Assembly (NCBI GenBank): GCA_031459625.1
Contig: JAVKIH010000001.1
Coordinates: 288,394 to 316,311, forward strand
Length of the DNA stretch: 27,918 bases
Origin: Candidatus Geohabitans tengchongensis
GTDB lineage: Bacteria; Sysuimicrobiota; Sysuimicrobiia; Sysuimicrobiales; Humicultoraceae
Direction: 5' to 3'
Shown: positions 1 through 23,153 of the stretch, in pieces
How the letters are laid out: each line of letters opens with the position of its first letter
Numbering within the stretch: position 1 is the first letter of the stretch
Position numbers and translations under genes: made by a program
The notes under the pieces: model-generated
What the model was told of the DNA's origin: nothing
Database searches by the model: none
What the model saw: only the letters and a program-made list of their open reading frames with translations

Positions 1-22
1 CGGTAAGATCCAGCGGAAGTGA
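1..22 (+). CDS. 3' end of an upstream gene, probably the BMP-family substrate-binding protein of the ABC transporter (partial)
   Basis: Frame 2 reads G-K-I-Q-R-K-stop (TGA 20-22). It sits directly before a CUT2 ATPase and two permeases and is followed by a strong hairpin. Only 6 codons are visible. Confidence 0.4.
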
Positions 23-32
23 GACCGGGACG

Positions 33-56
33 GGGGGGCCTCGGCGGAGGCCCCCC
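33..56 (+). terminator. Intercistronic GC-rich stem-loop (mRNA stabiliser or partial terminator)
   Basis: GGGGGGCCTC-ggcg-GAGGCCCCCC is a perfect 10-bp stem with a 4-nt loop. There is no U-tract. Its position after the presumed binding-protein gene is typical of ABC operons. Confidence 0.55.
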
Positions 57-72
57 GGGCGTACGGTGCGCC

Positions 73-2696: not shown

Positions 2697-3615
2697 GTAC
2701 GTCCTCGTCCTCTCCTACCTCACGGCGACGGTCCGCCTGACCACTCCCATCGGCCTGGCGGCCATGGGGGGCGTCCTTTCCGAGCGGTCGGGTGTCTTCA
2801 ACATCGCCCTGGAAGGGATGATGCTCTTCGGGGCGCTGACGGGAGTCCTGGGTTCCCACTACTGGGGGAGTCCCTGGGCAGGGACTGCCGCCGCTGCGGG
2901 AGTCGGCGCGGTCCTCGGCCTCCTCCTCGCGTACCTGAGCGTCACCCTGGGGGCCAACCAGATCGTCTCCGGCGTGGCCCTTAACCTGTTCGCCTTCGGG
3001 TGTACGACTTTCCTGGCGCGGGTCCTGCTGCGCCCCGCCGGGATCGAACAGGTCCCGGCTTTCCAGCCCCTGGTGGTGCCCTACCTTGCCGACCTGCCCC
3101 TGATCGGACCCGTGCTCTTCCGGCAGACGCCCCTGGTCTACGCGGCCCTGGTGTTGGCCCCCGCACTCACCCTCTTCCTCTTCCGGACCCCCTGGGGGCT
3201 GGGCCTTCGGGCGGTCGGGGAGCACCCACGGGCCGCCGACACGGCGGGGCTGAAGGTGGCCCAGATGCGCTACGGTGCGGTCGTCGCCAGCGGGATGCTG
3301 GCCGGGACGGCGGGAGCCTTCCTCTCCCTGGGGCACCTCAACCTGTTCACGGAGAACATGAGCGCAGGCCGGGGGTTCATCGCTCTGGCGGCGGTGATCT
3401 TCGGGAAGTGGCACCCACTGGGGGCCTTGGGTGCGGCCCTGCTCTTCGGCGCCGCCGACGCCTTTCAGCTCCTCATCCAGACCTACAACCTCGGGGTCCC
3501 CTACCAGGTGCCCGTTATGCTGCCGTACCTCTTGGCCCTCCTGGCCCTCACGGGTCTGGTGGGCCGTATGGCGCCGCCGGCGGCGGCAGGGACTCCCTAC
3601 CGCGCCGAGGAGTGA
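2683..3615 (+). CDS. ABC transporter permease (nucleoside-type, YufQ/NupQ-like)
   Basis: Motifs SERSGVFNIALEGMML, LRAVGEHPRAADTAG and GRGFIALAAVIFGKW. The ATG at 2683 (MSPLEY) overlaps the end of the previous gene. Confidence 0.93.
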   Translation: MSPLEYVLVLSYLTATVRLTTPIGLAAMGGVLSERSGVFNIALEGMMLFGALTGVLGSHYWGSPWAGTAAAAGVGAVLGLLLAYLSVTLGANQIVSGVALNLFAFGCTTFLARVLLRPAGIEQVPAFQPLVVPYLADLPLIGPVLFRQTPLVYAALVLAPALTLFLFRTPWGLGLRAVGEHPRAADTAGLKVAQMRYGAVVASGMLAGTAGAFLSLGHLNLFTENMSAGRGFIALAAVIFGKWHPLGALGAALLFGAADAFQLLIQTYNLGVPYQVPVMLPYLLALLALTGLVGRMAPPAAAGTPYRAEE

Positions 3616-3618
3616 GCC

Positions 3619-4653
3619 GTGGTCCCGGGAGCCACCACCGCGGACCGGATCGTGGCCCCCACCGATGCCGGACGCTCGCGGATGGGGTTGGGGTTCCTGG
3701 GCACACCCCCCGTACCCCGCATGGTGGAGCTGGCGCAGGCGGCGGAGGCCGCCGGATTCGCGTCCGTGTGGGTGGCCGAGACTCGGCTGCGCCGGGACGG
3801 CATCACCGCGGTCGCCGCCATCGCCGTGGCCACCCGCCGGGTATCGGTGGCGACGGGCCTGGTGAATGTCTACACGCGGGGGCCCGTTCTCCTGGCCCAG
3901 ACGGCCGCCACCCTCGCTGAGCTCTCGGGCGGCCGGTTCGCCCTTGGGGTGGGAGCGGGATCTGCGGAGATCCTGCGGGCTCAGGGCATCGCCCCGGATC
4001 GGCCCTTCACCCGTTTGCGCGAGTACGTGGACGTCCTGCGGCCGCTGCTAGTGGGGCAGACCGTCGAGTACGAGGGACGGGTGGTCCGGGTGCGCGGGGC
4101 GCGACTGGAGGTGGTCCCGCCGGTGCCGCCTCCCCTGTACCTGGGCGTCACGGGGCCCCGCGGCCTGCGGCTGGCGGGACGGGTGGCGGACGGGGTGCTG
4201 CTGGACGCGTTCGTACCGATGGCGTACATCCAGCGGGCGGCGGAGGTCGTGCAGGCCGCGGCTGGCGAAACTGGGCGGGGGCGGGTAGACATCGCGGGGA
4301 TCGTGATGACAGCCATCGCCGAGAATGGGGCCACCGCGCGGGAGAGGATGCGGGCCGCCATCGCCCGATACTACACGCTCTTCCCCACGATCGCGGCGGT
4401 CAGTGGGCTGAGCCCCGACGAGGTGGAGCGCCTCCAGCGTGTCACGCGGCAGGAGGGGCCTCGGGCCGGTGGCCGTTACCTCAGTGACGCGCTGGTGGAT
4501 GCGGTCTGCCTGGCGGGGACGCCAGAGGAATGCCGACGGGGCCTCCAGCGCTTCCGGGCGGCTGGCCTGGACCTGCCTGTCCTCATGACGCCGGACGACC
4601 CCGCGGATCTGCTGGAGGCCTTTGGCCAGAATGCCACGTCCGGTGAGGGGTGA
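3619..4653 (+). CDS. LLM-class (luciferase-like) flavin- or F420-dependent oxidoreductase, Mer-like
   Basis: AEAAGFASVWVAE, LAELSGGRFALGVGAG, PLYLGVTGPRGLRLAGRVADGVLL and AGTPEEC. The start may be the later ATG (MGLGFLG). Confidence 0.88.
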   Translation: MVPGATTADRIVAPTDAGRSRMGLGFLGTPPVPRMVELAQAAEAAGFASVWVAETRLRRDGITAVAAIAVATRRVSVATGLVNVYTRGPVLLAQTAATLAELSGGRFALGVGAGSAEILRAQGIAPDRPFTRLREYVDVLRPLLVGQTVEYEGRVVRVRGARLEVVPPVPPPLYLGVTGPRGLRLAGRVADGVLLDAFVPMAYIQRAAEVVQAAAGETGRGRVDIAGIVMTAIAENGATARERMRAAIARYYTLFPTIAAVSGLSPDEVERLQRVTRQEGPRAGGRYLSDALVDAVCLAGTPEECRRGLQRFRAAGLDLPVLMTPDDPADLLEAFGQNATSGEG

Positions 4654-4657
4654 GCGC

Positions 4658-6067
4658 ATGAACCGACCCGAACGGCTCGATCTGCTCCTCGCGGGGGGGA
4701 CGGTCATCACCATGGACCCGGATCGCCGCATCCTGGAGCGCGGGGCTGTAGGCGTTCGGGGCTCCCGGATCGCCGTGGTGGGCCCGGCCGAGGATCTGGA
4801 GGGGGTCCCGGCGGCCCGTCGCCTCGACGTCTCCGGGAAGGTCGTCTTCCCCGGCTTGGTGAACACCCACACCCACCTCTTCCAGACACTGCTCAAGGGG
4901 CCGGCGGACGACCGCGTGCTGGAGGAGTGGTTCCGCGAGGTCGTGGCCCCCGCCGCCAGCGAGCTCACGGAAGAGGACTGCTATGTGGCCGCGGCGTTGG
5001 GGTGCGTCGAGGCCCTGCGCTCGGGCACGACGACGCTCAAGGACTTCATGTACGTGCACCCCCGCCCCCATCTTTCCGACGCGGTGATCCGCGCCATGGT
5101 GGAGACGGGGATCCGGGGAGTGTTCGTGCGCGGTTACATCGATATGGGCGACGAGTACGGCATTCCGCGCGCCCTCATCCAGTCCACCGAGGACGTCCTG
5201 GCCGACTGTGAGCGGGTGGCCAAGCGTTACCACGGGGCCGCCGACGGGCGGATCACCGTGCGCTTCGGTCCGTGCATGATCTGGTCGTGCACCGCAGAGG
5301 GGTTGCGGGCCACGCAGCACCTGGCGGCCCACCTCGGCCTGGGACTGACGATGCACGTGGCGGAGACCCCCTTCTCCGTGCAGAACGCCATGGCCCGTTT
5401 CGGTGTGGGCGACCTCGCGGCCCTGGAGCGGTTGGGCGTGTTGGAGACCCCTACCCTGGCGGTGCACTGCGTCCACCTCACCCCCCGTGACCTGCGCATC
5501 CTCAAGGCGCGGGGTACTGCGGTCTCCCACAACCCCACGAGCAACATGTACCTGGCGGCCGGTGTGGCCCCGGTCCCTCAGATGCTCCTCGCCGGCATCC
5601 CCGTGGGTCTGGCCACCGATGGCCCGGCGAGCAACAACAACCAGAACATGATCGAGGCTCTCAAGTTCGCGGCCCTCCTGCACAAGGTGCACACGGGCGA
5701 CCCCACCGCGATCACCGTGGAGCAGGTCTTCGAGATGGCCACACTGGGTGCGGCTCGTGCCCTGGGCCTGGAGGGCGAGGTGGGGTCCTTGGAGGTTGGC
5801 AAGCGGGCGGACATCGCCGTGGCCGACCTCTGCACGGCCACGGCCTCCCCTGTCCACCACCCCGTCTCATCGCTGGTGTACTCCGCGATCGGTTCGGAAG
5901 TGGAGACGGTCATCATCGATGGCCGCCTAGTCATGGAGGGTGGTCGGATCCTCACCGTGGATGAGGGGGGCCTCCTCCGGGAGGCGCAGCGCGCCGCCCA
6001 CGCCCTCCTGCAGCGTGCCCGCATTGCGCCGCCTGCGGCCCGCGCCTGGCGCGCCCTGGCCTTCTAG
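4658..6067 (+). CDS. Amidohydrolase-family deaminase (MtaD/SsnA/Atz-Trz-like)
   Basis: PGLVNTHTHLFQ (HxH), MHVAET, AVHCVHL, SHNPTSN, GLATDG and GSLEVGKRADI. ATG at 4658 after GAGGGG. Confidence 0.92.
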   Translation: MNRPERLDLLLAGGTVITMDPDRRILERGAVGVRGSRIAVVGPAEDLEGVPAARRLDVSGKVVFPGLVNTHTHLFQTLLKGPADDRVLEEWFREVVAPAASELTEEDCYVAAALGCVEALRSGTTTLKDFMYVHPRPHLSDAVIRAMVETGIRGVFVRGYIDMGDEYGIPRALIQSTEDVLADCERVAKRYHGAADGRITVRFGPCMIWSCTAEGLRATQHLAAHLGLGLTMHVAETPFSVQNAMARFGVGDLAALERLGVLETPTLAVHCVHLTPRDLRILKARGTAVSHNPTSNMYLAAGVAPVPQMLLAGIPVGLATDGPASNNNQNMIEALKFAALLHKVHTGDPTAITVEQVFEMATLGAARALGLEGEVGSLEVGKRADIAVADLCTATASPVHHPVSSLVYSAIGSEVETVIIDGRLVMEGGRILTVDEGGLLREAQRAAHALLQRARIAPPAARAWRALAF

Positions 6068-6070
6068 GAC

Positions 6071-7027
6071 GTGGGCGCCGACCGCGACCTGCGCCCCCCG
6101 GACGCGCTGGAGAGCCCGCGCTTCGCAGGAATCCGCACCTTCATGCGCCTCCCCCACCGACCTGCGGCGGCAGGGGCTGACGTCGTCGTCCTGGGGATCC
6201 CCTTCGACACGGGCGCCACCTTCCGCGTGGGGGCGCGCTTTGGTCCTGTCGCGATCCGGGCCGCCTCAGTCCTCCTCAAGCCGTACTCGGTGGAGCAGGG
6301 GGTGGACGTCTTCGCCGCCTGCAGCGCCGTGGACCTCGGCGACGTGGACGTCGTCCCGGGCTACCTGGACGACTCCTACGCGCGCATCCGGGAGGCGGTG
6401 GCCGCGGTGGTGGCCGCGGGCGCCGTCCCCCTGGCGCTGGGCGGGGATCACTCCATCACCCTTCCGGAGTTGCGCGCCCTGGCGGGGCACTGGGGCCCGC
6501 TGGCCCTGGTGCAGTTCGATGCCCACACCGACACCTGGGACTCGTACTTTGGGCGAAAGTACACGCACGGCACGGTGGTACGGCGCGCGGTGGAGGAGGG
6601 CCTCATCCTCCCCCAACGCTCCACCCAGGTGGGGATTCGTGGACCTCTCTACCGCGCGGACGATGTCGAGGAGGCGCGCCGTCTGGGATTGGAGGTCATC
6701 CCGATGACCACCGTGCGGCGCCAGGGCGCGGAGGCGGTGGCTGAGGCGATCCGTCGGCGGACGGCGGATGCCCCGGCCTTCCTGTCGTTCGACGTCGACT
6801 TCCTGGATCCGGCTTTCGCCCCCGGGACGGGGACACCCCAGGTGGGCGGGGCTACCTCGGCGGAGGCGCTGCAGATCCTCCAGGGGTGCGCCGGCCTGAC
6901 CATGGCCGGCGCTGACGTGGTGGAGGTCGTCCCTGCCTACGACGTGGGGGAGATTACCGCTCTGCTGGCGGCGCAAGTTGTCTTCGAGTATCTGGCACTG
7001 GTTGGCCGGCAGCGGGTCGGGGGCTGA
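6071..7027 (+). CDS. speB: Agmatinase-family ureohydrolase
   Basis: PRFAGIRTFMRLP, GARFGP, GGDHS, DAHTD, HGT, SFDVDFLDP and APGTGTP. The binuclear metal ligand motifs are present. The exact substrate is uncertain. Confidence 0.88.
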   Translation: MGADRDLRPPDALESPRFAGIRTFMRLPHRPAAAGADVVVLGIPFDTGATFRVGARFGPVAIRAASVLLKPYSVEQGVDVFAACSAVDLGDVDVVPGYLDDSYARIREAVAAVVAAGAVPLALGGDHSITLPELRALAGHWGPLALVQFDAHTDTWDSYFGRKYTHGTVVRRAVEEGLILPQRSTQVGIRGPLYRADDVEEARRLGLEVIPMTTVRRQGAEAVAEAIRRRTADAPAFLSFDVDFLDPAFAPGTGTPQVGGATSAEALQILQGCAGLTMAGADVVEVVPAYDVGEITALLAAQVVFEYLALVGRQRVGG

Positions 7028-7028
7028 G

Positions 7029-7342
7029 GTGGTCCCGACCCACGACCTCGTCATCCCGTCCTTCGTCAATGCTCACCTCCACCTGGACAAGGTGTGCACG
7101 CGGGATCTCGTGGCCGACGGAGCACAGGAGCAGAACGCCAGCGGGGCGATGGGGGGCGCCATGAGGCGATCGAGTGGGCCGCCGCCATCAAGGATCGCTA
7201 CGCGGGAGAGTGCGTCTACGGAATGCGCGCCGGGCAGTGCGGGAGGAGTTGCGCCACGGCGTCACCCACGTCCTGGCGTTCGCCGATACAGACACCCGGC
7301 CGCGACTGGAAGCCGCGGCAGCGCTGGACAGAGTCAGAGGGA
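7029..7342 (+). pseudogene. Remnant of a cytosine/creatinine deaminase-like amidohydrolase
   Basis: Three frames join into LVIPSFVNAHLHLDKV...AMGGAM / EAIEWAAAIKDRY / NARRAVREELRHGVTHVLAFADTDTRPRLE, with frameshifts near 7163 and 7221. It is truncated at both ends. Confidence 0.8.
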
Positions 7343-7440
7343 GCAGGAAGAAAGACCCAATACCTGTGCAGCTCGGTTGGCAAAATCCCAGTTCTTACCC
7401 TGTGCGGCGGCTGGGCGGACAGGTGGGCGTGGGGACCGGT

Positions 7441-7469
7441 GGGCTCAGGGCGCCCAGCACCCTGAGCCC
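7441..7469 (-). terminator. Strong hairpin downstream of the minus-strand cassette
   Basis: GGGCTCAGGG (7441-7450) and CCCTGAGCCC (7460-7469) are a perfect inverted repeat, extending to 13 bp with one G-U pair on the minus-strand RNA. There is no U-tract. Confidence 0.4.
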
Positions 7470-7697
7470 GCTTCCCGCCTCCGCGTACGCCCTGCTGATC
7501 TCCCGGCCAGCCCGTGCCCACCATGCGTACCCGTACGAGCCCATGTCCTCCTTCACGAACCGGGTCACGACCGGGTCGTCCACATGCTCCAGCCACTGCT
7601 CCCGAACCGTGTAGAGCTCCAGGGCCAAAGGCCACCGCCATGCTGCAGGGGGCAACGCTGCGCTATGGGTGGACGGTCTGGGGGCGATGCCGCGGCC

Positions 7698-8105
7698 CTA
7701 TCTCCCGCAGCGGAATCCGGCAGGGCGGAGCCGATGATCCTCCGGGCGGGCTGGGTTGTAGCAGACCTTCACCGCATCACCGGGCTTGTAGGTCTCGTCC
7801 TGGGTGCGGAGGCCTTCGTACACGCGCCCGGCGACCCGATAGCGGTAGGTGATGTCGTACCCCTCGTGGACCTCCATGCTCTCCTCATCCTGTGTCGTCC
7901 AGGTGACTTTGCGCACCTCGACGACTTCCGCCAGGGCCTCCGCCGAGCGGCTCCGGTCAGCCTGCACCTCCGCCAGGACGATCCAGAGTGCTGCGCCCAG
8001 GAAGAGCCCCACACCGGCCAGAGGCATCCACTTCCACCGCTCCCGCTGCGAGCTGCGGGGAGCGGGACGGTCAGACGTGTGCGTCGACGTCGGCACGATC
8101 GACAC
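7698..8105 (-). CDS. DUF3592-like membrane-anchored protein
   Basis: One TM helix (LAGVGLFLGAALWIVLA) followed by a beta-rich domain ITYRYRVAGRVYEG...YKPGDAVKVCYNPARPED. GTG start at 8105 with GGGGAG upstream. Confidence 0.7.
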   Translation of the reverse strand: MSIVPTSTHTSDRPAPRSSQRERWKWMPLAGVGLFLGAALWIVLAEVQADRSRSAEALAEVVEVRKVTWTTQDEESMEVHEGYDITYRYRVAGRVYEGLRTQDETYKPGDAVKVCYNPARPEDHRLRPAGFRCGR

Positions 8106-8124
8106 CTCGGCACTCCCCCTTCGG

Positions 8125-8659
8125 CTAGGATCGGCTAAAGCGAAGGCTCTGGAGCATCTGCTTGAAGAGCGGTTCCACGCGCTGCCACTCGCGGGTCGGT
8201 GATTCGTACATGACAAAACCGGCGGCGGTGTGCTGGGCGCCGGGAACGGGTTGTGCGCCGATGAGGATCCAGGCGCGTTTGGGGGTCCGGCTCTCCGGGT
8301 ACGTCCACTCCCACGTGGCCTCGATGCTGCTCGCGCCTGACGCATCGCTGGCCGGTCGGACCCGCCGGCTGAGTACCCGGTAGCCCGGGAGCGTGCCGAA
8401 CTCGTCCACCACCAGGGACTGGAACCGGGTCTCCACCACTACCCGGCCCTCCAGCTTGATGGTGGGCAGGATCGAGAAGAAGGTCAGCCCGTCGCCGGGT
8501 GTGAACGCCGTGACCCCGCTGCGCTTCTCGACCCCATCCCTTGGGGTAGAAGATCGAGAACAGCCCGGCGGCATCCCGGTAGGGTTGCAGGGTCTCCGCC
8601 CGGATGGCGGAGACCGCGACCAGGACGACCAGAGCCGTGATCCCCAGCACCTTCCACAT
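8125..8659 (-). pseudogene. Exported PsbP/DcrB(Mog1p)-like protein interrupted by a single-base frameshift
   Basis: RBS GGAGG, signal peptide MWKVLGITALVVLVAVSAIRA, then YRDAAGLFSIFYPKGW. Removing one base from the run at 8532-8535 continues VEKRSGVTAF...EWQRVEPLFKQMLQSLRF, the typical ending of this fold. Confidence 0.72.
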
Positions 8660-8701
8660 GACACCATCCCTCCCATGCCCCACACGGGCCGCCCCGGCAC
8701 G

Positions 8702-9763
8702 CTACCGGGTCGCCGGCAGGGCAGCGTACCAGCCCTCGGCCAAGGTGCGGGCGGCACCGCGCAAACCGCGGTCGTCTGGCCGAAGGGGGCGTGGCACAGG
8801 ACGTCGCCGACAGCTTGCCCCTTGGCGAATTGCAGCTCGTACCCCCCGTCGGGGTACCGCGTGAAGGCGGCGGAACGGCCCACCGCGCCGGGATGGAGGG
8901 AGTGCTGTTGCCGGACCTCGGTACGAAAGGCCTCCACCCACTCGGCGGTGTGTTCGGGTGTGGCAAAAAACATGTAGGTGGCCTCCACCACGTGCGTGGG
9001 GTCGACGCGCAGGCCGTACCGACGCATCGTGACCTCGTCCACTCCGCCCCGCTGCAACGCGGCCAGCACCCTCACGGGATCCTTGGCGGTGTCGGCCAGG
9101 GCCCAGGCGTGTGGCGGGAGGACTGCGGTGCCGCGGACGGGCCCGACGCCGGCTGCCACCGGGGTCGGGGGGAGCATCGAGGCGAGACGCGCGGGGAGGG
9201 CCGGACCGTTCGTCGCGCGCGTGTCCCACGTTACCGCTGGTGAGCAGGAGGCGCTGAGCGCGCGAGTGACGCAGTTGCACCGCCACAAACCGCAGGGTGG
9301 TCTCGGCCCGCAGGTCCCCGGAGGTGCGCCGGCGGGTGAAGTACCGGGCGGCGGCGCCGAGGGATGGTCCCTGCACCATGTCCGCGCCGCGGTCATTCTG
9401 TTCCAGCAGTCGGCGCCGGAAGTCGTCGCGGGCCGCCCGGGCGTCCGCGTACAGGAGCGCGGTCGCCTCCAGGCGCTGCGGGGTGGAGGCAGCCACGCGG
9501 ACCAGCGTCTGCACGACGTAGAAGCGCAGGCCCGGAGCGCGGTCGCCGACGCCCACGTTGAACTGCGGGAAGTCCGGCCACCACGCGGGACCGCCCGCCA
9601 GTTCCTGCAGCGTCCGCCAGTCCACCGCCGCCAGGAGGTCGTCCGGTGTCAGTGCGGCCGCTGTGGACGCCGCGGGAGGCTGAGCCGTGGCGGCGCCGGC
9701 CAGCGCGACGATGACGAGGATGCTGGGGACGAGCGTGAGCGTTCCGCGGCGTGAGAGGGACAT
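8702..9763 (-). pseudogene. Exported protein with two internally similar domains and multiple frameshifts
   Basis: RBS GGAGG, ATG at 9763 and a signal peptide (MSLSRRGTLTLVPSILVIVALAGAATA). The coding frame switches near 9200-9280 (to LPARLASMLPP...YELQFAKG...VLCHAPFGQTTAVC) and again near 8760 (to GAARTLAEGWYAALPATR-stop). Confidence 0.65.
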
Positions 9764-9913
9764 GGCGAACCTCCGAGCACAGGCCTGGTGTGGCTCGGGC
9801 AGCGGTGCACAGTCCTGTTGACCCAAGTCACCAGAAGGGTGTGCCCAACTCGTCGCAGGTCAGTCTCCCCTGCGACCCTGCCTGGGCTGGCGTCCGCCAC
9901 CGCCGGGGGAGCG

Positions 9914-10456
9914 ATGCCCGGGAGCGGCACCTGGGGGAAGGCCGGCGCGGGGGAAGCGAGCGGCGTCGGGTGGAAACCCTCCGGCGTGCCGGAGATCCTG
10001 GCAGCAGCGTCCCTCGATCCGGAGCCGTACGTGGTCGTCGCGGTGCCCAGGCTGCTCGAGGCCAGCCTGCGCCTGGCCGTGGCCGGGCTGCACCAGCCCT
10101 GGTTCCTGGAGGTGGAAGAGGGAGAGGCGCGCCTCACGGTCCGCGCCGGGGAGTGGGCGCTCGTGGCGTCGCGCTTCCCGGGGGCCGCGACCGCCGGACC
10201 CTACCGCCTCCTCTCCTTCCCGGCCACGGCCCCAGCCGCGGGGACGGCGGAGAGCCCCGCCACAGGGCCGGCGGAGGGCCATGGCAGCGCCCGTGACCTG
10301 GCCCGCCGGCTGCAGCAGCAGGGCGTGGCGGTGCGCCTCCTCACCTCCTTCTTCCGGGACCACCTCCTGCTCCCCGCCGAGGCCCTGAGCGTGCTCGCTG
10401 CAGACGAGGCCGGCATCCCGCGGGCAGGAGGGGAGGGTGCCGGCGGCGAACCCTGA
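9914..10456 (+). CDS. ACT-domain protein (CASTOR/ACT_7-like amino-acid-binding fold)
   Basis: EPYVVVAVP, LTVRAGEW, GPYRLLSF and LARRLQQQGVAVRLLTSFFRDHLLLP match the pattern of small bacterial double-ACT proteins. The start is uncertain; the ATG at 9914 has GGGGAG upstream. Confidence 0.6.
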   Translation: MPGSGTWGKAGAGEASGVGWKPSGVPEILAAASLDPEPYVVVAVPRLLEASLRLAVAGLHQPWFLEVEEGEARLTVRAGEWALVASRFPGAATAGPYRLLSFPATAPAAGTAESPATGPAEGHGSARDLARRLQQQGVAVRLLTSFFRDHLLLPAEALSVLAADEAGIPRAGGEGAGGEP

Positions 10457-15245: not shown

Positions 15246-15578
15246 TCAGACGGGGTAGCCGAGCGCCCGCAGCGTCTCGCGGCCTTCGGGGGTCAGGCGC
15301 GCGGGGGTCCACGGCGGGCTCCAGACGAAGTCGACACGCACCTGCCTGGCGCCCACGGCCTGGAGGCGGTTCTCGATCTCCCGCGCGATCGTCGGGCCGA
15401 TGGGGCAGCCGAGCGCCGTCAGCGTCATGCGGATGGCCACGTCGTTACCCGCGAGCGCCACGTCGTAGACGAGCCCCAGGTCCCAGATGTTCACCGGGAT
15501 TTCCGGATCGTAGACCGTCTGCAGGACCTGGATCACCTGCTCCCTGGTGAGGGTCTCCCCCATCGCCTCGCTTGACAT
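15246..15578 (-). CDS. Metal-sulfur cluster assembly factor (DUF59, SufT/PaaD-like)
   Basis: VYDPEIPVNIWDLGLVY, MTLTALGCP and VWSPPWTP. ATG at 15578 with GGAGGGAG upstream. Confidence 0.93.
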   Translation of the reverse strand: MSSEAMGETLTREQVIQVLQTVYDPEIPVNIWDLGLVYDVALAGNDVAIRMTLTALGCPIGPTIAREIENRLQAVGARQVRVDFVWSPPWTPARLTPEGRETLRALGYPV

Positions 15579-15605: not shown

Positions 15606-15631
15606 ATGGTCGGTCGTCAGACCATTAGACC
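15606..15631. promoter_or_regulatory. Candidate FadR-subfamily operator in the divergent sufT/fadR intergenic region
   Basis: TCGTCAGACCA (15614-15624) is one mismatch from the FadR/LldR-type TGGTCAGACCA box. It is nested in the inverted repeat ATGGTC-N8-GACCAT, with a further AGACC half-site just downstream. Confidence 0.55.
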
Positions 15632-15668: not shown

Positions 15669-16409
15669 ATGGAGACCGTCCTCACCCCGCCCACCTTCCG
15701 TCCCGTCCGGCGCCAGCGTGTCTTCCAGGAGGTGGCCGCCCAGCTCCGGCAGCAGATCGCCGAAGGACGCTTCCGCCCGGGCGACCGGCTCCCCTCCGAG
15801 CGCGAGCTGGCCGAGGCCTTCGGCGTCAGCCGGGCCTCGGTGCGCGATGCCATCCGGGTGCTCGAGCTGGCCGGCCTGGTCGAGCCGCGGCAGGGCGAGG
15901 GGACGGTCGTGCGCGAGCTCACCCTCGACGCCTTGGTCTCTCCGCTGGCCGCGGTGCTGGCCCACGAGGGTCACTACCTGCCAGCCCTCCTGGACGCCCG
16001 GACCATCATCGAGCCGCCGGTGGCCTACCGGGCCGCCCGGCATGCCAGCGACGAGGACATCGCGGCGCTGGAGGAGATCCTCGCCCGTCAGGCCGCCCGC
16101 GTGGCGGCCGGCGAGCTGGCCATCGACGAGGACACCGCCTTCCACTACCGACTGGGCGTGGCGGCGGGGAACCCCGTCCTGTTGAGGCTGGTGGACGTGC
16201 TCATGGACCTGCTGCACGAGAGCCGGGTGCGGTCGCTGGGCGTCCCCGGGCGGCCGGAGCGGTCGCTGGCGGGCCACCGGCGCATCCTGGCCGCCGTCCG
16301 CGCGCACGATCCCGAGGGGGCCAGCGCGGCGATGCGCCAGCACCTGGAGGAGATCGGCGAGATGCTGGCCGCGGCCCGGCCGGAGCGGGCGGGGCGCAGC
16401 CGGGGCTGA
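15669..16409 (+). CDS. FadR/GntR-family regulator (LldR/GlcC/PdhR-like, FCD domain)
   Basis: GDRLPSERELAEAFGVSRASVRDAIRVLE...QGEGTVV; the FCD domain shows DTAFH, GNPVL, HRRI and MRQHL. Confidence 0.95.
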   Translation: METVLTPPTFRPVRRQRVFQEVAAQLRQQIAEGRFRPGDRLPSERELAEAFGVSRASVRDAIRVLELAGLVEPRQGEGTVVRELTLDALVSPLAAVLAHEGHYLPALLDARTIIEPPVAYRAARHASDEDIAALEEILARQAARVAAGELAIDEDTAFHYRLGVAAGNPVLLRLVDVLMDLLHESRVRSLGVPGRPERSLAGHRRILAAVRAHDPEGASAAMRQHLEEIGEMLAAARPERAGRSRG

Positions 16410-16440
16410 GGGGACCGAGCCGGAGAGCGGGAGGCGGGGC

Positions 16441-17694
16441 ATGGCTACCTACGCGGTCGAGGTCGTCTACCGGGGGATCTTCCAGAAGACCCTGGCCAAG
16501 AACATCACCCGCGGCATCGTGCTGGCCGCGGTGCAGGAGGGCAAGACCGGGATCGCCTTCGGGCGGTACGGGGACAGCCCCGAGCGAAACGGCATCCCGG
16601 CCAAGAACTTCGCCATCGTCGCCGACGACGCGGAGGAGCTCGAGGCCAGCATGGCCCAGTACGAGCCCAAGGCGGTGGACATCACCATCGCCGTGGACGA
16701 CACGCTCTGCAAGGGCGTGGAGTCGTGGGCCTGGTACGGGCTGCAGCCCATCAACCGGCTGACCAAGCCGGGCGGCTACGTCGTCGTCACCACCATGCTC
16801 CCCTTCGAGGAGCTGCTCACGATGACGCACGCCAAGGGCGACCCCTACCACCTGGCCGTGGTGCGCGGGCTGCCGTCGTTTTCGGGACTGTGGGTCTACA
16901 AAGACGACCACACCGACGTGCGCATGCTGGGCGCCATCGCCCGGCTCAAACCGGAACTGCTCTCCCTGGCGGCGGTGGAGGCGGCCATCCGCGAGGAGTG
17001 GGGGGACGAGCTGAAGGTCCTCTCCGCCCGCCGGGCGCACGAGCGGGTCGAGACACTGCTCGTCCCGCCGGGAACCGGGAACCCGGAGACCCCCTACGAG
17101 TTCGAGCTGCCCAGGTGGTGGGAGCTGCGGGAGGGGCTGACCATCCCAGCCATCCGGACCGCTGACGGGGCGGCGGGGGAGGCGTTGGTCGACCCGGCCA
17201 CGGGCACGGCCGGCGGGTGGCGGCCGGCGCGCAACCCGTACTTCAAGAAGTTCACCACCCGCACCATGCGCCCGGTGGTGGACTTCGACACCTGCGTGAA
17301 GTGCACGCTGTGCTGGCTGCAGTGCCCCGACTCCTGCTTCGACGTCACCCCCGACGGCTTCTACGACGCCAACCTGGAGGCGTGCTGCGGCTGCGGCGTG
17401 TGCGAGGCGGTCTGCCCGGTGGCCAACTGCATCACCATGGTCAACGAGGCCGCCTTCACCGACCACCGCAGCCAGTGGGAGATGTGGAAGGCCGACCCGG
17501 CCGCCTACAAGGTGTGGGTGCAGGAGAAAATCCGGCACCGCCCGGAGCGCTCCCACGGCTTCCGCTACCGCGGCCAGTACCAGGAGCAGATCCAGGCCAT
17601 GGTGGCATCCGGCGTGCCGGCCGGCCCGGGCCAGGAGGCGCTGACCGAGCAGGTGGCGCACGACACCGTCGAGCCGAGCGCGGGAGGGAACTGA
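16441..17694 (+). CDS. 2-oxoacid:ferredoxin oxidoreductase fused gamma/delta subunit (oxalate oxidoreductase delta-like)
   Basis: A gamma-type N-terminal domain (YRGIFQK...RYGDSPERNGIP) is fused to two [4Fe-4S] motifs, CVKCTLCWLQCP and CCGCGVCEAVCP. RBS GGAGG. Confidence 0.88.
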   Translation: MATYAVEVVYRGIFQKTLAKNITRGIVLAAVQEGKTGIAFGRYGDSPERNGIPAKNFAIVADDAEELEASMAQYEPKAVDITIAVDDTLCKGVESWAWYGLQPINRLTKPGGYVVVTTMLPFEELLTMTHAKGDPYHLAVVRGLPSFSGLWVYKDDHTDVRMLGAIARLKPELLSLAAVEAAIREEWGDELKVLSARRAHERVETLLVPPGTGNPETPYEFELPRWWELREGLTIPAIRTADGAAGEALVDPATGTAGGWRPARNPYFKKFTTRTMRPVVDFDTCVKCTLCWLQCPDSCFDVTPDGFYDANLEACCGCGVCEAVCPVANCITMVNEAAFTDHRSQWEMWKADPAAYKVWVQEKIRHRPERSHGFRYRGQYQEQIQAMVASGVPAGPGQEALTEQVAHDTVEPSAGGN

Positions 17695-17695
17695 G

Positions 17696-18931
17696 ATGGC
17701 CAGGGTGGTGGAGCCCCGGGTCGCCCCGGGGGTGGAGGAGCAGGAGCGCGAGGAGCTCATCAGCGGCAGCGAGGCCATCGCCGTGGCCTGCAAGCTGGCC
17801 GACGTCGACGTCATCACCGCCTACCCCATCCGCCCCTACGACACGGTGATGCAGTACGTGGCCAAGCTGGTGGCCAACGGCCAGCTCGACTGCGAGTACA
17901 TCGTCGCGGAGAGCGAGCACTCCCAGTTCGAGATCGTCAAGCACGCCTCCGCCGCCGGCGCGCGAGTCTTCTGCGGCAGCAGCGGGGTGGGCTGGATGTA
18001 CGCCTTCGAGGCCCTCACCGTCACCCCGGCGCTGCGCATCCCCATGGTGGCCATGGTGGGCAACCGGGCCCTCGACGACCCGGGCGCCTTCGGCGTCGAG
18101 CACAACGACGCGCTGGCCGTGCGTGACCTGGGGTGGATGCTGGTCTGGGTGGACACGGCCCAGGAGGCCCTGGACACCGCTCTCATCGCCTACCGGGTGG
18201 CCGAGGACCGCCGCGTCTTCCTCCCCTGCGCCATCGCCTGCGACGGGGCCTTCCTCACCCACTCCCAGGCCATCGTGAAGGTCCCCCCGCAGGCGTGGGT
18301 GGACCGCTTCCTCCCGCCCTACGACCGCGGCGACCTGCTCCTCCACCCCGACAACCCTATCACCGTGGCCCCGCAGGTGAACGAGGACTGGCTGATGGAG
18401 CTGCGCAAGCAGAACGACGAAGCGATGAAGCGGGCGCGCACGGTGATCGCCGAGGCCTACCGGGAGTTCGAGGCCATCTTCGGGCGGGCCTACGGCAACC
18501 CGTTCTTCGAGGAGTACCAGACCGCGGATGCCGACGTCGTCCTGGTGGGCATGGGCACCCTCTCCATGCCGGTGAAGGTGGCCATCCGCCGGCTGCGGCA
18601 GGAGGGGCACCGGGTCGGGCTGGTGCGGCTGCGCTGGTTCCGCCCCTTCCCCACCGAGGAGCTGCAGGCGACCCTCAGCCGCTTCCGGGCCGTGGGCGTG
18701 ATCGACCGCGACTACGCCTTCGGGTCCCCCTACACCAGCGGGGTGGTGGCCAACGAGGTGCGGGCGGCGCTCTACGACGCGCCGCAGCGCCCGCCCGTCG
18801 TCGGGTTCATCTCCGGACTGGGCGGCCGCGAGGTCACCGTGCCCGACGTCTACCGCATGGTGGCCCTGCTGGAGCAGGCGGCGGCGGGGACGCGCGTCGC
18901 CCCCACGCACTGGATCGGGATCCGCGAGTAG
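17696..18931 (+). CDS. 2-oxoacid:ferredoxin oxidoreductase alpha subunit (oxalate oxidoreductase alpha-like)
   Basis: DVITAYPIRPY, ESEHS, AGARVFCGSSGVG, NRALDDPGAFG, FRPFP and GLGGRE. Confidence 0.92.
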   Translation: MARVVEPRVAPGVEEQEREELISGSEAIAVACKLADVDVITAYPIRPYDTVMQYVAKLVANGQLDCEYIVAESEHSQFEIVKHASAAGARVFCGSSGVGWMYAFEALTVTPALRIPMVAMVGNRALDDPGAFGVEHNDALAVRDLGWMLVWVDTAQEALDTALIAYRVAEDRRVFLPCAIACDGAFLTHSQAIVKVPPQAWVDRFLPPYDRGDLLLHPDNPITVAPQVNEDWLMELRKQNDEAMKRARTVIAEAYREFEAIFGRAYGNPFFEEYQTADADVVLVGMGTLSMPVKVAIRRLRQEGHRVGLVRLRWFRPFPTEELQATLSRFRAVGVIDRDYAFGSPYTSGVVANEVRAALYDAPQRPPVVGFISGLGGREVTVPDVYRMVALLEQAAAGTRVAPTHWIGIRE

Positions 18932-18945
18932 AGGAGGGAGGAGAC

Positions 18946-19971
18946 ATGGCCGACGCCGTCCAGACGGTGCCGACGCCGACGCTGGAGCCCATCAAGGGCG
19001 TCAAGAAGGTCCCGCTGGAGGAGTACTTCACCTCCGGCCACCGGACCTGCCAGGGGTGTGAGTCGGCCCTGGTGATGAAGCTCATGGTCAAGGCCGCCGG
19101 GCCGCGCACCATCGTGCTGGGGAGCACGGGGTGTATGTACGTGGCCAACACCACCTACTACAGCACCTCCTGGGTGGTCCCCTGGATGCACACCCAGCTC
19201 GGCAGCAGCGGCTCGGCCGGGCTGGGGACGGCGGCGGCGCTGCGGGTCCTCATGCGCAAGGGCAAGCTCAAGCTCGAGCCGATCAACGTCATCGCCTTCT
19301 GCGGCGACGGCGGCGGGGCGGACATGGGACTGTCGGCCATCTCCGCCGCCTTGACCCACACCGACTACAACTTCCTCATCCTCCTCTACGACAACGAGTC
19401 CTACGCCAACACCGACATCCAGCTCTCCGGGCTGACCCCCTACGGGGCCCACACCACCTTCAGCCCGCCGGGGAAGATGAAGCGCATCCTGCACCACCGC
19501 TGGAAGAAGAACGTGGCCGGGATGCTGGCCGCTGGCCATCCGGAGTGCCGCTACGTGGCCACCGTCTGCGCCTCCTACGCCGTGGACATGATGAACAAGG
19601 TCCGCCGGGCGCTCAGCATCGGCGGCCCCACCTTCATCCACTCCCTGGACCCCTGCCCCAAGGGGTGGGACTACGACCCGATGCTCTCCCACGAGCTGGG
19701 GGAGCTGGCCGTGAACACGGGGATCTGGCCGCTCTACGAGGTGGAGGACCACAGGCTCAAGCTGTACGGCCGCACCCGGGCCATCGCCGAGAAGCGGGCC
19801 CGGCGGCTGCCCGTGCGCGACTACCTGCTCAAGCAGGGGCGCTTCGCCCACTTCACCGACGACGACATCGACTACTTCCAGGCGAAGGTGGACGAGATGT
19901 GGGAGCGGTGGATCATCCCCGGCGTCATCCCCTTCGCCAGCGACATCGTGAACGACCGGCCGCCCCAGTGA
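18946..19971 (+). CDS. 2-oxoacid:ferredoxin oxidoreductase beta subunit, TPP-binding (oxalate oxidoreductase beta-like)
   Basis: GHRTCQGC, TGCMYVANT, the TPP motif GDGG...YDNESYANT, and PCPKGW. ATG at 18946 with a strong GGAGG RBS. Confidence 0.93.
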   Translation: MADAVQTVPTPTLEPIKGVKKVPLEEYFTSGHRTCQGCESALVMKLMVKAAGPRTIVLGSTGCMYVANTTYYSTSWVVPWMHTQLGSSGSAGLGTAAALRVLMRKGKLKLEPINVIAFCGDGGGADMGLSAISAALTHTDYNFLILLYDNESYANTDIQLSGLTPYGAHTTFSPPGKMKRILHHRWKKNVAGMLAAGHPECRYVATVCASYAVDMMNKVRRALSIGGPTFIHSLDPCPKGWDYDPMLSHELGELAVNTGIWPLYEVEDHRLKLYGRTRAIAEKRARRLPVRDYLLKQGRFAHFTDDDIDYFQAKVDEMWERWIIPGVIPFASDIVNDRPPQ

Positions 19972-20063
19972 CGGGCGGCCGGTCGGCGCGAAGGGGGTGA
20001 GGCCCGTCGGGAGACCGTGATCTGACCGCGCACCGGGGCACGCGCAGACTCTCGTCAGGGGGG

Positions 20064-21048
20064 GTGAAACCCGTGCGCCAGGAGGACGTGCGGATCGGAA
20101 CCGTGACGCTCCTCGTCCTCGGCCTGCTCGTGGCATTACCGGTGACCGCCGCGCCGGCGTGGGCACCGCGCCGGCCCATCGAGTGGACCATCCCCGCCGG
20201 GACCGGCGGGGGCGCCGACCAGCAGGCGCGCTTCATGGCGCCGCTGATCGAGAAGTACCGCCTCTCCCCGCAGCCCTTCATCCCCGTGAACCGCCCGGCC
20301 GGGGCGGGGGCGCAGGCCTTCCTCTGGATGGTGGACAAGGCCGGGGACCCGCACACCATCCTCATCACCCTGGACAACCTCTTCGCCACCCCCATCGCCC
20401 AGGTGATCCGCAACCGGGACGGGTCCCGCTTCACCTGGCGCTCGCTCACGCCCATCGCCCGCCTCCTGCTCGACAACTTCGTCCTCACCGTGCACCACGA
20501 CGCGCCCTGGAAGACGGTGGCGGAGTTCGAGCGGGCGGCCAAGGCGGCCCCGCGCGGCAGCATCAAGATGGCCGGCACGGGGTCGAAGCAGGAGGACGAG
20601 ATCATCATGGTGATGCTCGAGCAGGCCTGGGGCGTCGACTTCACCTACGTCCCCTTCCCCGGCGGCGGGGCGGTGGCGGCGGCGCTCGTGGGCAAGCAGG
20701 TCGACTTCACCGTGAACAACCCCCTGGAGATGGTGGGGCACTGGGAGGCCGGGCGGGTGCGCCCGCTGGCCATCTTCGCCAGCGAGCGCGTGCCCGTCGC
20801 CCGCTGGCGGGAGATCCCCACCATGCGCGAGCTGGGCTTCCCCATCGAGTACCAGATGCTGCGCGGCATCTTCGGGACGCAGAACATGCCGGCCGAGGCG
20901 GTGGCCTTCTACCAGGAGGTCTTCCGCCGGCTGATGGACACGGAAGAGATGGCCGACTTCATCGAGCGGGGGGCCTTCCTGGCTGGAGAGCAAGGACCGC
21001 ACCGTCCGCGAGCTGATGGTCAAGGGCGGCCTGGCCACCGGCAGCTGA
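20064..21048 (+). pseudogene. tctC: Tripartite tricarboxylate transporter substrate-binding protein TctC with a 3' deletion/frameshift
   Basis: Signal peptide, PAGTGGGAD, VNRPAGAG, YVPFPGGG, PTMRELG and RGIFG. At about 20980 the frame runs into low-complexity sequence (to 21161), while another frame gives a plausible terminal helix WLESKDRTVRELMVKGGLATGS-stop (21048). Confidence 0.8.
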
Positions 21049-21054
21049 GGCGTG

Positions 21055-21086
21055 CCGCGGGGCGGGCCCGTGCGCCCGCCCCGCGG
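21055..21086 (+). terminator. Intercistronic hairpin after tctC
   Basis: CCGCGGGGCGGGC-ccgtgc-GCCCGCCCCGCGG is a perfect 13-bp stem starting 7 nt after the TGA ending at 21048. Confidence 0.6.
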
Positions 21087-21139
21087 GCCGTGACGCGGGC
21101 CGCCCGGGCCGGTGAGGCGGCGCGAGAGGGGGGAGCGAG

Positions 21140-21610
21140 GTGCGACGGGCGGAGGTCCTGATGGCCGCGGGGCTGCTCGCCTTCGCCGTGGTGATGCTCC
21201 GGCAGGCGCTGCACCTGCCGGTGGGCTGGACGGCCACGGGGCCGGGCGCGGGGTTCTTCCCCTTCTGGCTCGCCCTCGGCGTGGGCGTGGTGGCGGTGGT
21301 GCTCCTCTGGCAGGCCGTGCGCGTGCCCGCCGCCGAAGGGGCGCTCGTCCCCGTCGGCGCCTGGAAGCCGCTGCTCGTCGTCTTCCTCCCCATCGTCGCC
21401 ACCATCGCGCTGCTGGGCGTGCTGGGGCTCTACCTGGGCGGGGCGCTCTACCTGGCCGGGTACACGCGCCTGGTGGGACGGCACCGCTGGCCCTTCGTCG
21501 TCGCGGTCAGCGTGCTGGTGCCGCTCGGGCTCTTCCTGATCTTCGAGCGGTGGTTCCTCCTGCCCATGCCCAAGGGCGCAGTCCTGGAGTGGCTCCTCTA
21601 CGGGCGGTGA
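21140..21610 (+). CDS. tctB: Tripartite tricarboxylate transporter small membrane subunit TctB
   Basis: GWTATGPGAGFFPFWL, 4-5 TM helices and IFERWFLLPMPKG. It lies between tctC and tctA. Confidence 0.9.
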   Translation: MRRAEVLMAAGLLAFAVVMLRQALHLPVGWTATGPGAGFFPFWLALGVGVVAVVLLWQAVRVPAAEGALVPVGAWKPLLVVFLPIVATIALLGVLGLYLGGALYLAGYTRLVGRHRWPFVVAVSVLVPLGLFLIFERWFLLPMPKGAVLEWLLYGR

Positions 21611-21614
21611 GCCG

Positions 21615-23153
21615 GTGGCCCTGCTGAACGTCTTCGCCGATCTGCTCTACGGGCTGGGGGTGGCCGCCACCCCGTACAACCTGACCGTGGCCGTCATCGG
21701 CCTGCTGCTGGGCACCGCCATCGGGGTGCTGCCGGGCCTCGGGGGGACGAACGGGGTGGCGCTGTTGCTGCCGCTCACCTTCAACCTGACGCCCACCGCG
21801 GCGATCATCCTGCTGGCCTCGGTGTACTGGGGGGCGATCTTCGGGGGCGCCATCACCTCCATTCTCTTCAACATCCCCGGCGAGCCCTGGTCGGTGGCCA
21901 CCACCTTCGACGGCCACCCCCTGGCCAAGCAGGGGCGGGCAGGGATGGCCCTCACCGCGGCGTTCACCTCCTCCTTCATCGGCGCGCTGGTCGCCATCGT
22001 CCTCTTCACCTTCTTCGCGCCCCCGCTGGCGGAGTGGGCGCTGCGCTTCGGACCGCCGGAGAACTTCGCGGTGCTCATGCTCGCCTTCGCCACCTTCGCC
22101 GGGCTCGGGGGCGGGAAGCCCGCCAAGACCATCCTCATGACCCTGCTGGGGCTGCTCCTCAGCACCATGGGGTTCGACATCGTCACCGGCCAGCCGCGCA
22201 TGCACTTTGGGCTCGTCTCCCTGCAGAGCGGCATCAACTTCATCGTCATCGCCATCGGCCTCTTCGGCCTGGGGGAGATCTTCCTCACGGTGGAGGAGGG
22301 GCTGCGGCTGGAGGGGGTCCGGGGGCGCATCAGTTTCCGCGACCTGTGGGAGACCTGGGCCCGTTTCCCTCGGTACGTCGCCACCCTGGTGCGGGCCACG
22401 CTGCTCGGCTTCTGGATCGGCGTCCTCCCGGGGACGGGGGCCACCCCGGCGTCCTTCATGAGCTACGGCCTGGCCAAGCAGCTGAGCAAGGAGCCGGAGA
22501 AGTTCGGTAAAGGCTCGGTCGAGGGGGTGGTGGCGCCGGAGACGGCGGCGCACGCCGCGGGCATTGGGGCGCTGCTGCCCATGGTGACGCTGGGCATCCC
22601 CGGCTCGCCGACGGCGGCAGTGATGCTGGCGGGGTTCTTCATCTGGGGGCTCAACCCCGGGCCGCTGCTCTTCACCACCCAGCGGGAGTTCGTCTGGGGG
22701 CTCATCGGCTCGATGTACCTGGCCAACGTCATCGGCGTGCTCATCGTGCTCACGCTGGTGCCGGCCTTTGCCGCGATCAACCGCATCCCCTTCGCGCTGC
22801 TGGCCCCGCTCATCGTCATCCTCTCCAGCATCGGTGCCTACGCGGTGAACAACCAGACCCTGGACCTGTGGATCATGCTGGGGGCCGGGGTGGCCGGCTA
22901 CCTGTTCAGGAAGCTGGACTACCCGCTGGCGCCGCTGGTGGTCGCCCTGGTGCTGGGCGACATGACGGAGCAGGCGCTGCGCCAGTCGCTGATCATGGGG
23001 CAGGGATCCTTTGCCATCTTCGTCACACGGCCGATCGCCCTGGCCTTCCTGGCCGGGGCGGCGGTGCTGTTCCTGCTCCCCCTCTACCGCGCCCTGCGCA
23101 ACGGCCGGCGCCCGCGGCCGCTGCGGCCGGCCGAGGCCAAACTCGAAGCTTAA
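21615..23153 (+). CDS. tctA: Tripartite tricarboxylate transporter large membrane subunit TctA
   Basis: IGVLPGLG, SILFNIPGEP, TFDGHPLAKQG, GVVAPETA, TLGIPGS and PLVVALVLG. Confidence 0.95.
   Translation: MALLNVFADLLYGLGVAATPYNLTVAVIGLLLGTAIGVLPGLGGTNGVALLLPLTFNLTPTAAIILLASVYWGAIFGGAITSILFNIPGEPWSVATTFDGHPLAKQGRAGMALTAAFTSSFIGALVAIVLFTFFAPPLAEWALRFGPPENFAVLMLAFATFAGLGGGKPAKTILMTLLGLLLSTMGFDIVTGQPRMHFGLVSLQSGINFIVIAIGLFGLGEIFLTVEEGLRLEGVRGRISFRDLWETWARFPRYVATLVRATLLGFWIGVLPGTGATPASFMSYGLAKQLSKEPEKFGKGSVEGVVAPETAAHAAGIGALLPMVTLGIPGSPTAAVMLAGFFIWGLNPGPLLFTTQREFVWGLIGSMYLANVIGVLIVLTLVPAFAAINRIPFALLAPLIVILSSIGAYAVNNQTLDLWIMLGAGVAGYLFRKLDYPLAPLVVALVLGDMTEQALRQSLIMGQGSFAIFVTRPIALAFLAGAAVLFLLPLYRALRNGRRPRPLRPAEAKLEA

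Follow-up and report, generated by a model that had tools for sequence, protein, structure and literature searches.

A putative oxalate import and oxidation operon in a hot-spring member of Sysuimicrobiota, based on a sister clade of Moorella oxalate oxidoreductase

Introduction

What might be the substrate of a ferredoxin-linked 2-oxoacid oxidoreductase whose genes lie between a regulatory gene of the FadR subfamily and those of a tripartite tricarboxylate transporter (TTT)? The question is raised by a stretch of 27,918 nucleotides (here called the window) from Candidatus Geohabitans tengchongensis (phylum Sysuimicrobiota, family Humicultoraceae; assembly GCA_031459625.1, contig JAVKIH010000001.1, positions 288,394 to 316,311). 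The original prediction, made from the sequence of the window, was of a complete module to sense, import and oxidize oxalate or a relative, by means of an enzyme like the oxalate oxidoreductase (OOR) of Moorella thermoacetica (MtOOR). We find this oxalate-type reading supported, with corrections concerning the enzyme (which belongs to a sister clade), the importer (one of two kinds) and tctC (which is broken). The operon would import oxalate and oxidize it, independently of coenzyme A (CoA), to two CO2 along with two low-potential electrons, a reading to which we give a probability of roughly 0.7.

The operon and its enzyme

The predicted gene run and order hold good: fadR, the genes for gamma-delta, alpha and beta subunits, tctC, tctB and tctA follow each other on one strand, with gaps of 31, 1, 14 and 92 nt from fadR to tctC and of 4 nt between tctB and tctA. 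Their positions in the window, and that of an operator-like site ahead of them, are:

15614..15631, forward strand: FadR-type operator-like site (TGGTCnGACCA as inverted repeat, together with GACC), 38 nt ahead of the start of fadR
15669..16409, forward strand: FadR-subfamily (GntR plus FCD) regulator, from Pfam GntR and FCD
16441..17694, forward strand: fused gamma (domain III) and 2x[4Fe-4S] ferredoxin (domain V) subunit, from best matches to MtOOR delta and from motifs
17696..18931, forward strand: alpha subunit (domains I-II), from alignment to 5c4i_A, NF045791 and conservation
18946..19971, forward strand: beta subunit (domain VI), from alignment to 5c4i_C and NF045792
20064..21161, forward strand: TctC binding protein, GTGSKQED loop at 20574, broken, from Pfam TctC, reading frames, homologues and run contigs
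21140..21610, forward strand: TctB small membrane subunit, Pfam PF07331
21615..23153, forward strand: TctA permease, Pfam PF01970 (E 2.5e-152)

The TTT set of TctC, TctB and TctA is thus all present by Pfam, and the subunits of the enzyme carry the 2-oxoacid:ferredoxin oxidoreductase superfamily's features: domains I, II, III and VI, the thiamine pyrophosphate (TPP)/Mg motif and the proximal cluster cysteines. To which member of the superfamily is the enzyme closest? In NCBIfam each of the three subunits is matched best by a Moorella OOR model, and against the Protein Data Bank (PDB) MtOOR outscores the Methanosarcina pyruvate:ferredoxin oxidoreductase (POR) for alpha (354 vs 226 bits), beta (288 vs 202) and gamma-delta (72 vs 46). 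The predicted gamma-ferredoxin fusion is confirmed by two stretches matching OOR delta and by a Foldseek search with an AlphaFold model of gamma-delta (mean pLDDT, the predicted local distance difference test score, 75), in which MtOOR chains took ranks 1-8 (E 1e-21), with PorC next.

The MtOOR type has three subunits, with domains III-V fused, and its Arg31 binds oxalate and acts with Asp116 in a bait-and-switch mechanism (PMC5020499). Alignment of the window's alpha to 5c4i_A puts Arg46, in the YPIRP motif (17822-17836), at Arg31, Arg124 at Arg109 and Gln227 at Gln211. Alignment of beta to 5c4i_C shows the CxxC and other cluster cysteines, the TPP/Mg motif GDGGGADMG...YDNESYANT and Asn155 at the position of Asn143, which, like Gln211, we take to have a role in MtOOR; the motifs picked out earlier do start where they were placed (YPIRP at 17822, GHRTCQGC at 19036, GCMYVANT at 19129, YDNESYANT at 19387). 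Overlooked in the original prediction was a change in the switch loop, where Ala131 replaces Asp116 and Asp128 replaces Pro113.

How general is this pattern? From 569 relatives we took the best 80, with their loci from species genomes, and counted the 79 alphas that aligned over at least 300 residues (one was shorter and was dropped). All 79 have the loop R-x-LDDPGAF, and YPIRPYD is present in all 77 that cover it; the same pair of motifs occurs in 119 of the 120 top database matches, whose source names, where given, are pyruvate ferredoxin oxidoreductase. A divergent subgroup (L189; G078:C27) with 62% alpha identity has YPIRPYTE, and keeps both LDDPGAF and a TctC that is 83% identical, from which Asp128 seems to be more constant than the Asp following YPIRPY.

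In gamma-delta, the cluster motifs are at 17293 and 17383, and YRGIFQKT at 16468 stands in place of a Gly-rich loop of domain III that presumably takes part in CoA binding. The corresponding loop is RG(I/V)(F/Y)Q in 71 of 71 gamma-delta homologues, ARGVVM in MtOOR and HGRGGYG in the PorC encoded elsewhere in the same genome; the Gly-rich loop is also missing from the true OOR of a relative. Both ferredoxin motifs are retained in 69 of the 71 homologues. Domain III has been reported to bind CoA in pyruvate:ferredoxin oxidoreductases (PMC13768988), and in this respect the loop, as a proxy, agrees with CoA independence.

Phylogenetic position

For a quick IQ-TREE phylogeny of 75 alphas we took 24 of the 79 locus alphas, those of the window and of the genome's POR, and nine Arg-motif and 40 selected Thr-motif representatives; branches were assessed by the Shimodaira–Hasegawa-like approximate likelihood-ratio test (SH-aLRT) with no bootstrap, and OOR was represented by proxies passing the cut-off, MtOOR itself not being in the tree. 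A branch with SH-aLRT 100 separated all alphas with the Arg motif (YPIRP or FPIRP) from the 41 of YPITP type, among them the genome's own POR. The Arg-motif side splits into the window's PGAFG clade (SH-aLRT 99) and a PGDFG clade (99), the latter containing a protein (P0131) above the OOR cut-off (583/500). A third Arg-motif lineage (P0130, with FPIRP and LDDPGNF) branches between the two. The tree held no identified five-subunit POR or 2-oxoglutarate:ferredoxin oxidoreductase from Aquificae or Nitrospira; the operon has no fifth gene.

The predicted OOR-like identity therefore stands in so far as alpha groups with OOR-type YPIRP enzymes and not with pyruvate synthases, and falls in so far as the enzyme is not OOR proper. 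From its sequence, it belongs to a clade that is sister to Moorella OOR, not to that equivalog, because Asp116 is lost and the NCBIfam cut-offs are missed. Our literature searches turned up no description of the clade or of an oxalate-binding TTT; an earlier mention in the primary OOR papers or their supplements is possible.

A natural comparison pair is provided by a contig (G042:C84) on which a PGDFG-type OOR operon (L187:276-6270), comprising genes for FadR, a Cdc48-family AAA ATPase, gamma-delta, alpha and beta, lies about 57 kb from a PGAFG plus TTT operon. The PGDFG enzyme of this two-enzyme genome, with its own FadR and Cdc48-type ATPase, scores 575/500 for alpha and 550/590 for beta.

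Importers adjacent to the enzyme

If the operon does serve oxalate, its neighbours in other genomes might be expected to say so. Sixty-five of the 80 loci were informative, extending at least 1.3 kb beyond the beta gene. This TTT follows in 21 of them, a same-strand OxlT-type gene within about 200 nt in 26, a convergent OxlT gene in three and both transporters in one (an OxlT-type gene thus in 30, the both-carrier included). The predicted linkage to a TTT is accordingly retained in 22 loci from several phyla, with the qualification that the TTT is only one of two interchangeable importers. The downstream OxlT-like open reading frames, of at least three sequence types, passed TIGR04259 in 24 of the 26 cases scanned (one other was frameshifted and one in the wrong frame). 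When one OxlT-type protein was aligned to OxlT from the PDB, the Arg of RPFWG and the Lys of AK, which we take to be oxalate ligands, were both found to be kept; a lactate transporter lacks the Lys.

No Frc or Oxc gene was found in the 80 loci. A pair of genes, for an acyl-CoA ligase and a PanE-type reductase, follows in five. Since panE2 has been described as encoding an oxalyl-CoA reductase (PMC12686821), the pair resembles, by description rather than direct protein comparison, an oxalyl-CoA synthetase/reductase pattern. A gene resembling those for ferredoxin-NADP reductase (FNR) lies upstream of the enzyme in two Acidobacteriota loci. A membrane gene of the TerC family is found repeatedly behind beta or tctA at enzyme loci, and likewise behind the GTGSKQED TTTs of Skermanella and Azospirillum (L034:10351-11298; L181, L183).

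One check proposed for the original prediction was whether TctC homologues with the GTGSKQED loop adjoin oxalate genes elsewhere, and they do. With a TctC of the module from Myxococcota as query (47% identity to the window's, loop present), 80 metagenome loci were retrieved; 52 of these, together with six plasmid loci, were at least 3 kb long and were counted. In these 58 loci, with TctCs 45-50% identical to the window's, frc was nearby in 16 and oxc in 14, and representative Frc and Oxc proteins passed their cut-offs. At a plasmid locus in Skermanella, gcl and glxR adjoin a GTGSKQED TTT. In most loci of the frc/oxc type, a 709-aa gene resembling those for ADP-forming acyl-CoA synthetases lies between frc and the TTT (L109:1890-4016; about 30 TctC loci), and is possibly for an undescribed oxalate- or formate-CoA ligase.

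Regulation

The FCD-containing regulators of the FadR subfamily have binding sites of the type TGGT-N3-ACCA. The putative operator at 15614, with one mismatch to the consensus and the best position weight matrix score in the genome, fits this subfamily, as does the regulator, with its GntR helix-turn-helix and FCD domains; the NanR, LldR, PdhR and GlcC models all scored below their cut-offs. Allowing up to three mismatches, 47 of the 59 fadR homologues have such a site upstream, against none of 59 coding controls, the consensus having been derived from these same homologous loci. The predicted linkage to fadR is kept in 64 of the 80 loci and is lacking in five, the other 11 being too short upstream. 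No match to a sigma-70 promoter was found.

Physiology and distribution in Sysuimicrobiota

The genome containing the window (2.76 Mb, 94% complete, about 73% G+C) shares 91-99% of its words with sequencing runs labelled as hot-spring metagenome (runs with small shares were set aside). The named loci closest to it bear the lineage of Sysuimicrobiota (CSP1-3). The absence of Frc, Oxc and OxlT remarked on for the window extends over the whole genome, where none was found over cut-off. The view that the host is not evidently an acetogen is also sustained: no acetyl-CoA synthase (ACS) or NiFe hydrogenase scored over cut-off in the genome, which does encode a heme-copper oxidase. A separate four-subunit POR of the YPITP type (C44:27200-30130), with GRGGYG in gamma and a separate delta, is present.

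The enzyme was found in 52 of 73 genomes of the phylum and Oxc in none of the 73. Only three of the 52 carriers have ACS (49 do not), and in the phylum ACS was confined to the window's own family, in agreement with a report for Humicultoraceae (PMC11604079). This TctC occurs in 34 of the 73 genomes, 33 of which carry the enzyme; OxlT over cut-off was found in six, all of them enzyme carriers without this TctC, with the OxlT gene on the enzyme's contig in four and directly after beta in three. Beyond the phylum, a scan of Acidobacteriota in which up to six candidates were scored per genome showed the clade to be rare there: seven of 301 sampled genomes (centre genome included) carry it, and two carry matches that rank with true OOR.

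A lesion in tctC

The module is not complete in this strain. Comparison with homologues aligning there shows a deletion of 35 bp in tctC at about 20978, putting the conserved C-terminal helix out of frame: the end of the homologous protein is encoded in another frame, finishing at 21048, and the open frame continues to 21161. Could this be an artefact of assembly? That was ruled out by contigs from three runs (of one study), which cross the site with no differences; a related strain from a different study has 36 letters where the window has one. The deletion is a real strain-level lesion. In the phylum, 34 genomes have this TctC; the window's match stops at query residue 304 and the others reach 333-336, the protein being full-length in most relatives. 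Relatives therefore have the complete module, which is probably impaired in this strain; TctC function is predicted to be impaired, and oxalate uptake may be weak or lost.

Proposed function and alternatives

We propose that FadR would repress the operon, including its own gene, through the site at 15614, with oxalate as inducer; that the TTT would import oxalate, as the ligand of TctC; that the TPP- and [4Fe-4S]-dependent enzyme would split it to two CO2 without CoA, the clade-invariant Asp128 taking over from the missing Asp116; and that the two low-potential electrons would pass by way of ferredoxin to respiration or biosynthesis rather than acetogenesis. Oxalate as the substrate is supported by gene context. 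In view of the ligase/PanE neighbours we also weighed operation in reverse, fixing CO2 (2 CO2 to oxalate and on to glyoxylate), and rejected it because importers are the commonest neighbours.

A number of observations weigh against this proposal. The enzyme itself falls below the NCBIfam cut-offs for OOR (NF045790, 92.5/230; NF045791, 398.7/500; NF045792, 335.1/590 bits), and the Asp116 position is Ala in the window and in all 79 locus alphas. One genome keeps PGAFG and true PGDFG enzymes, both headed by a FadR of their own, a hint that the two do different jobs. As to the importers, 14 of the 65 informative loci have neither. The loci are related, so that what was counted does not amount to independent events. 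Of the 52 carriers of the enzyme in the phylum, 13 (12 of them in one family) have neither this TctC nor OxlT over cut-off. The frc/oxc link was drawn from the Myxococcota TctC and not from the window's, and two GTGSKQED plasmid loci have no oxalate gene within 12 kb. A TctC tree (FastTree, few outgroups) has no isolated oxalate clade, and three TctCs without a visible oxalate gene nest, on long branches, among the oxalate-linked ones. A malonyl-CoA synthetase scored over cut-off near one TTT of the frc/oxc type (the ligase cluster spans 22 loci), and a gene like those for lactate/glycolate permeases (LctP family, below cut-off) follows tctA in four loci (L024, L060, L061, L062); these two kinds of neighbour could also go with other acids. 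Finally, an RNA-labelled run had flat depth, flanks included, showing no transcription, and was not used.

A first alternative is an enzyme with the same CoA-free chemistry and a preference for some other small acid (oxamate, glyoxylate or mesoxalate), the change from Asp116 to Ala having reshaped the site and the importer carrying that acid. Invariant loss of Asp116, the occurrence of both OOR types in one genome, the permease-like neighbours and gcl/glxR in Skermanella might all be understood in this way. We nevertheless consider it unlikely, given that both arginines are retained and that two separate transporter families point to oxalate, one through the Arg/Lys pair of OxlT and the other through the frc/oxc-linked TctCs.

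Might the substrate be oxalate and the chemistry unlike that of MtOOR, releasing formate and CO2 (and so feeding an oxalate:formate antiporter) or including a CoA-linked step? The absence of Asp116, the OxlT-type antiporters adjoining an enzyme whose 80 loci lack Frc and Oxc, and the five ligase/PanE pairs could be seen in that light. It is made rather improbable by the conservation of the ferredoxin motifs, the FNR-like genes in two loci, the missing Gly-rich loop and the many members with a TTT rather than an antiporter.

An ordinary POR, to which the source names and a PorA_Arch score for alpha (363 bits) close below that of the OOR model would lead, is highly improbable in the light of YPIRP rather than YPITP, the absence of the Gly-rich loop, the position in the tree, the adjoining oxalate-type transporters and the separate POR in the genome, and we conclude that the enzyme is not a POR.

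Other genes in the window

A SufT/DUF59-like gene for Fe-S assembly (15246-15578, reverse strand) diverges from fadR, with its start about 35 nt from the operator-like site; a search of 88 related loci gave no match to it, and it is therefore excluded from the module. Further away, and unrelated to it, genes for a nucleoside/B6-type ABC transporter, an LLM-class oxidoreductase, an amidohydrolase and an agmatinase-like protein form one run (19-7027), and in the region 7094-10456 some 3 kb are nearly without Pfam matches, the only one being DUF3592 on the minus strand (7698-8345).

Significance and comparison with known systems

Environmental surveys of oxalate take oxc, frc, oxdC and oxlT for their marker genes, and concede that they undercount (PMC13409138, PMC10192776); the word 'oxidoreductase' does not occur in the second. 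If our proposal is right, 52 of the 73 genomes of the phylum use an oxalate route mostly missed by such markers. It is possible, and we suggest it tentatively, that a CoA-free OOR without Asp116 is the main route by which oxalate is burnt in a whole phylum abundant in soils and hot springs, as well as in scattered members of the Acidobacteriota, Myxococcota, Methylomirabilota and Nitrospinota. It would be a source of low-potential ferredoxin in oxygen-respiring non-acetogens and would escape surveys based on oxc and frc, and oxalate would reach it through a TTT, the first to bind this acid, which trades places with OxlT. Two genome papers on Sysuimicrobiota, PMC11604079 among them, are silent on oxalate in the main text, and it is therefore a concrete substrate to try for cultivation. 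Moreover, one survey of autotrophy excludes OOR by a cut-off under which the window's clade falls, so that the clade, annotated as POR, can inflate POR counts. The chemistry of OOR is a reversible coupling of CO2, and the natural change from Asp116 to Ala offers a direct test of its mechanism.

Among known transporters, the TctABC/Bug TTTs (PDB 4X9T, 6HKE, 2QPQ) share with the window the TctC, TctB and TctA Pfam families and the PAGTGGGAD loop; the window's TctC is distant from the solved binding proteins (best E 3e-26) and has the distinct GTGSKQED loop. Oxalotrophy of the Oxalobacter type, through Frc, Oxc and OxlT, has in common with the present system OxlT-type transporters, the GTGSKQED TTT in other lineages and the inferred substrate, whereas here neither CoA activation nor a formate intermediate would be expected, and Oxc was not found in the 73 phylum genomes. 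The four-subunit PorCDAB oxidoreductases for pyruvate and 2-ketoisovalerate (PDB 9BT4, and the genome's own copy on C44) share TPP, three [4Fe-4S] motifs, the domain set and 37% alpha identity; they differ by YPITP, by the GRGG of gamma, by a delta that is a subunit of its own and by their need for CoA.

From Moorella OOR, the only OOR known (PDB 5C4I, 5EXD, 5EXE; NF045790-2), the window's enzyme differs by Ala for Asp116 and Asp for Pro113, by falling below all three cut-offs, and in gamma-delta, which is longer by about 100 aa and has an identity of only about 24%. Its clade has a TTT or OxlT importer and hosts mostly without ACS, and its operon in the window lacks the Cdc48-type ATPase of what we take to be the Moorella neighbourhood. 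The two nevertheless belong to one tree clade, with the same subunits (domains I-II, VI and fused III-V), the same Arg31, Arg109, Gln211 and beta Asn143, the same lack of a Gly-rich loop in domain III and, to judge from the true OOR of a relative, the same arrangement of an operon headed by fadR.

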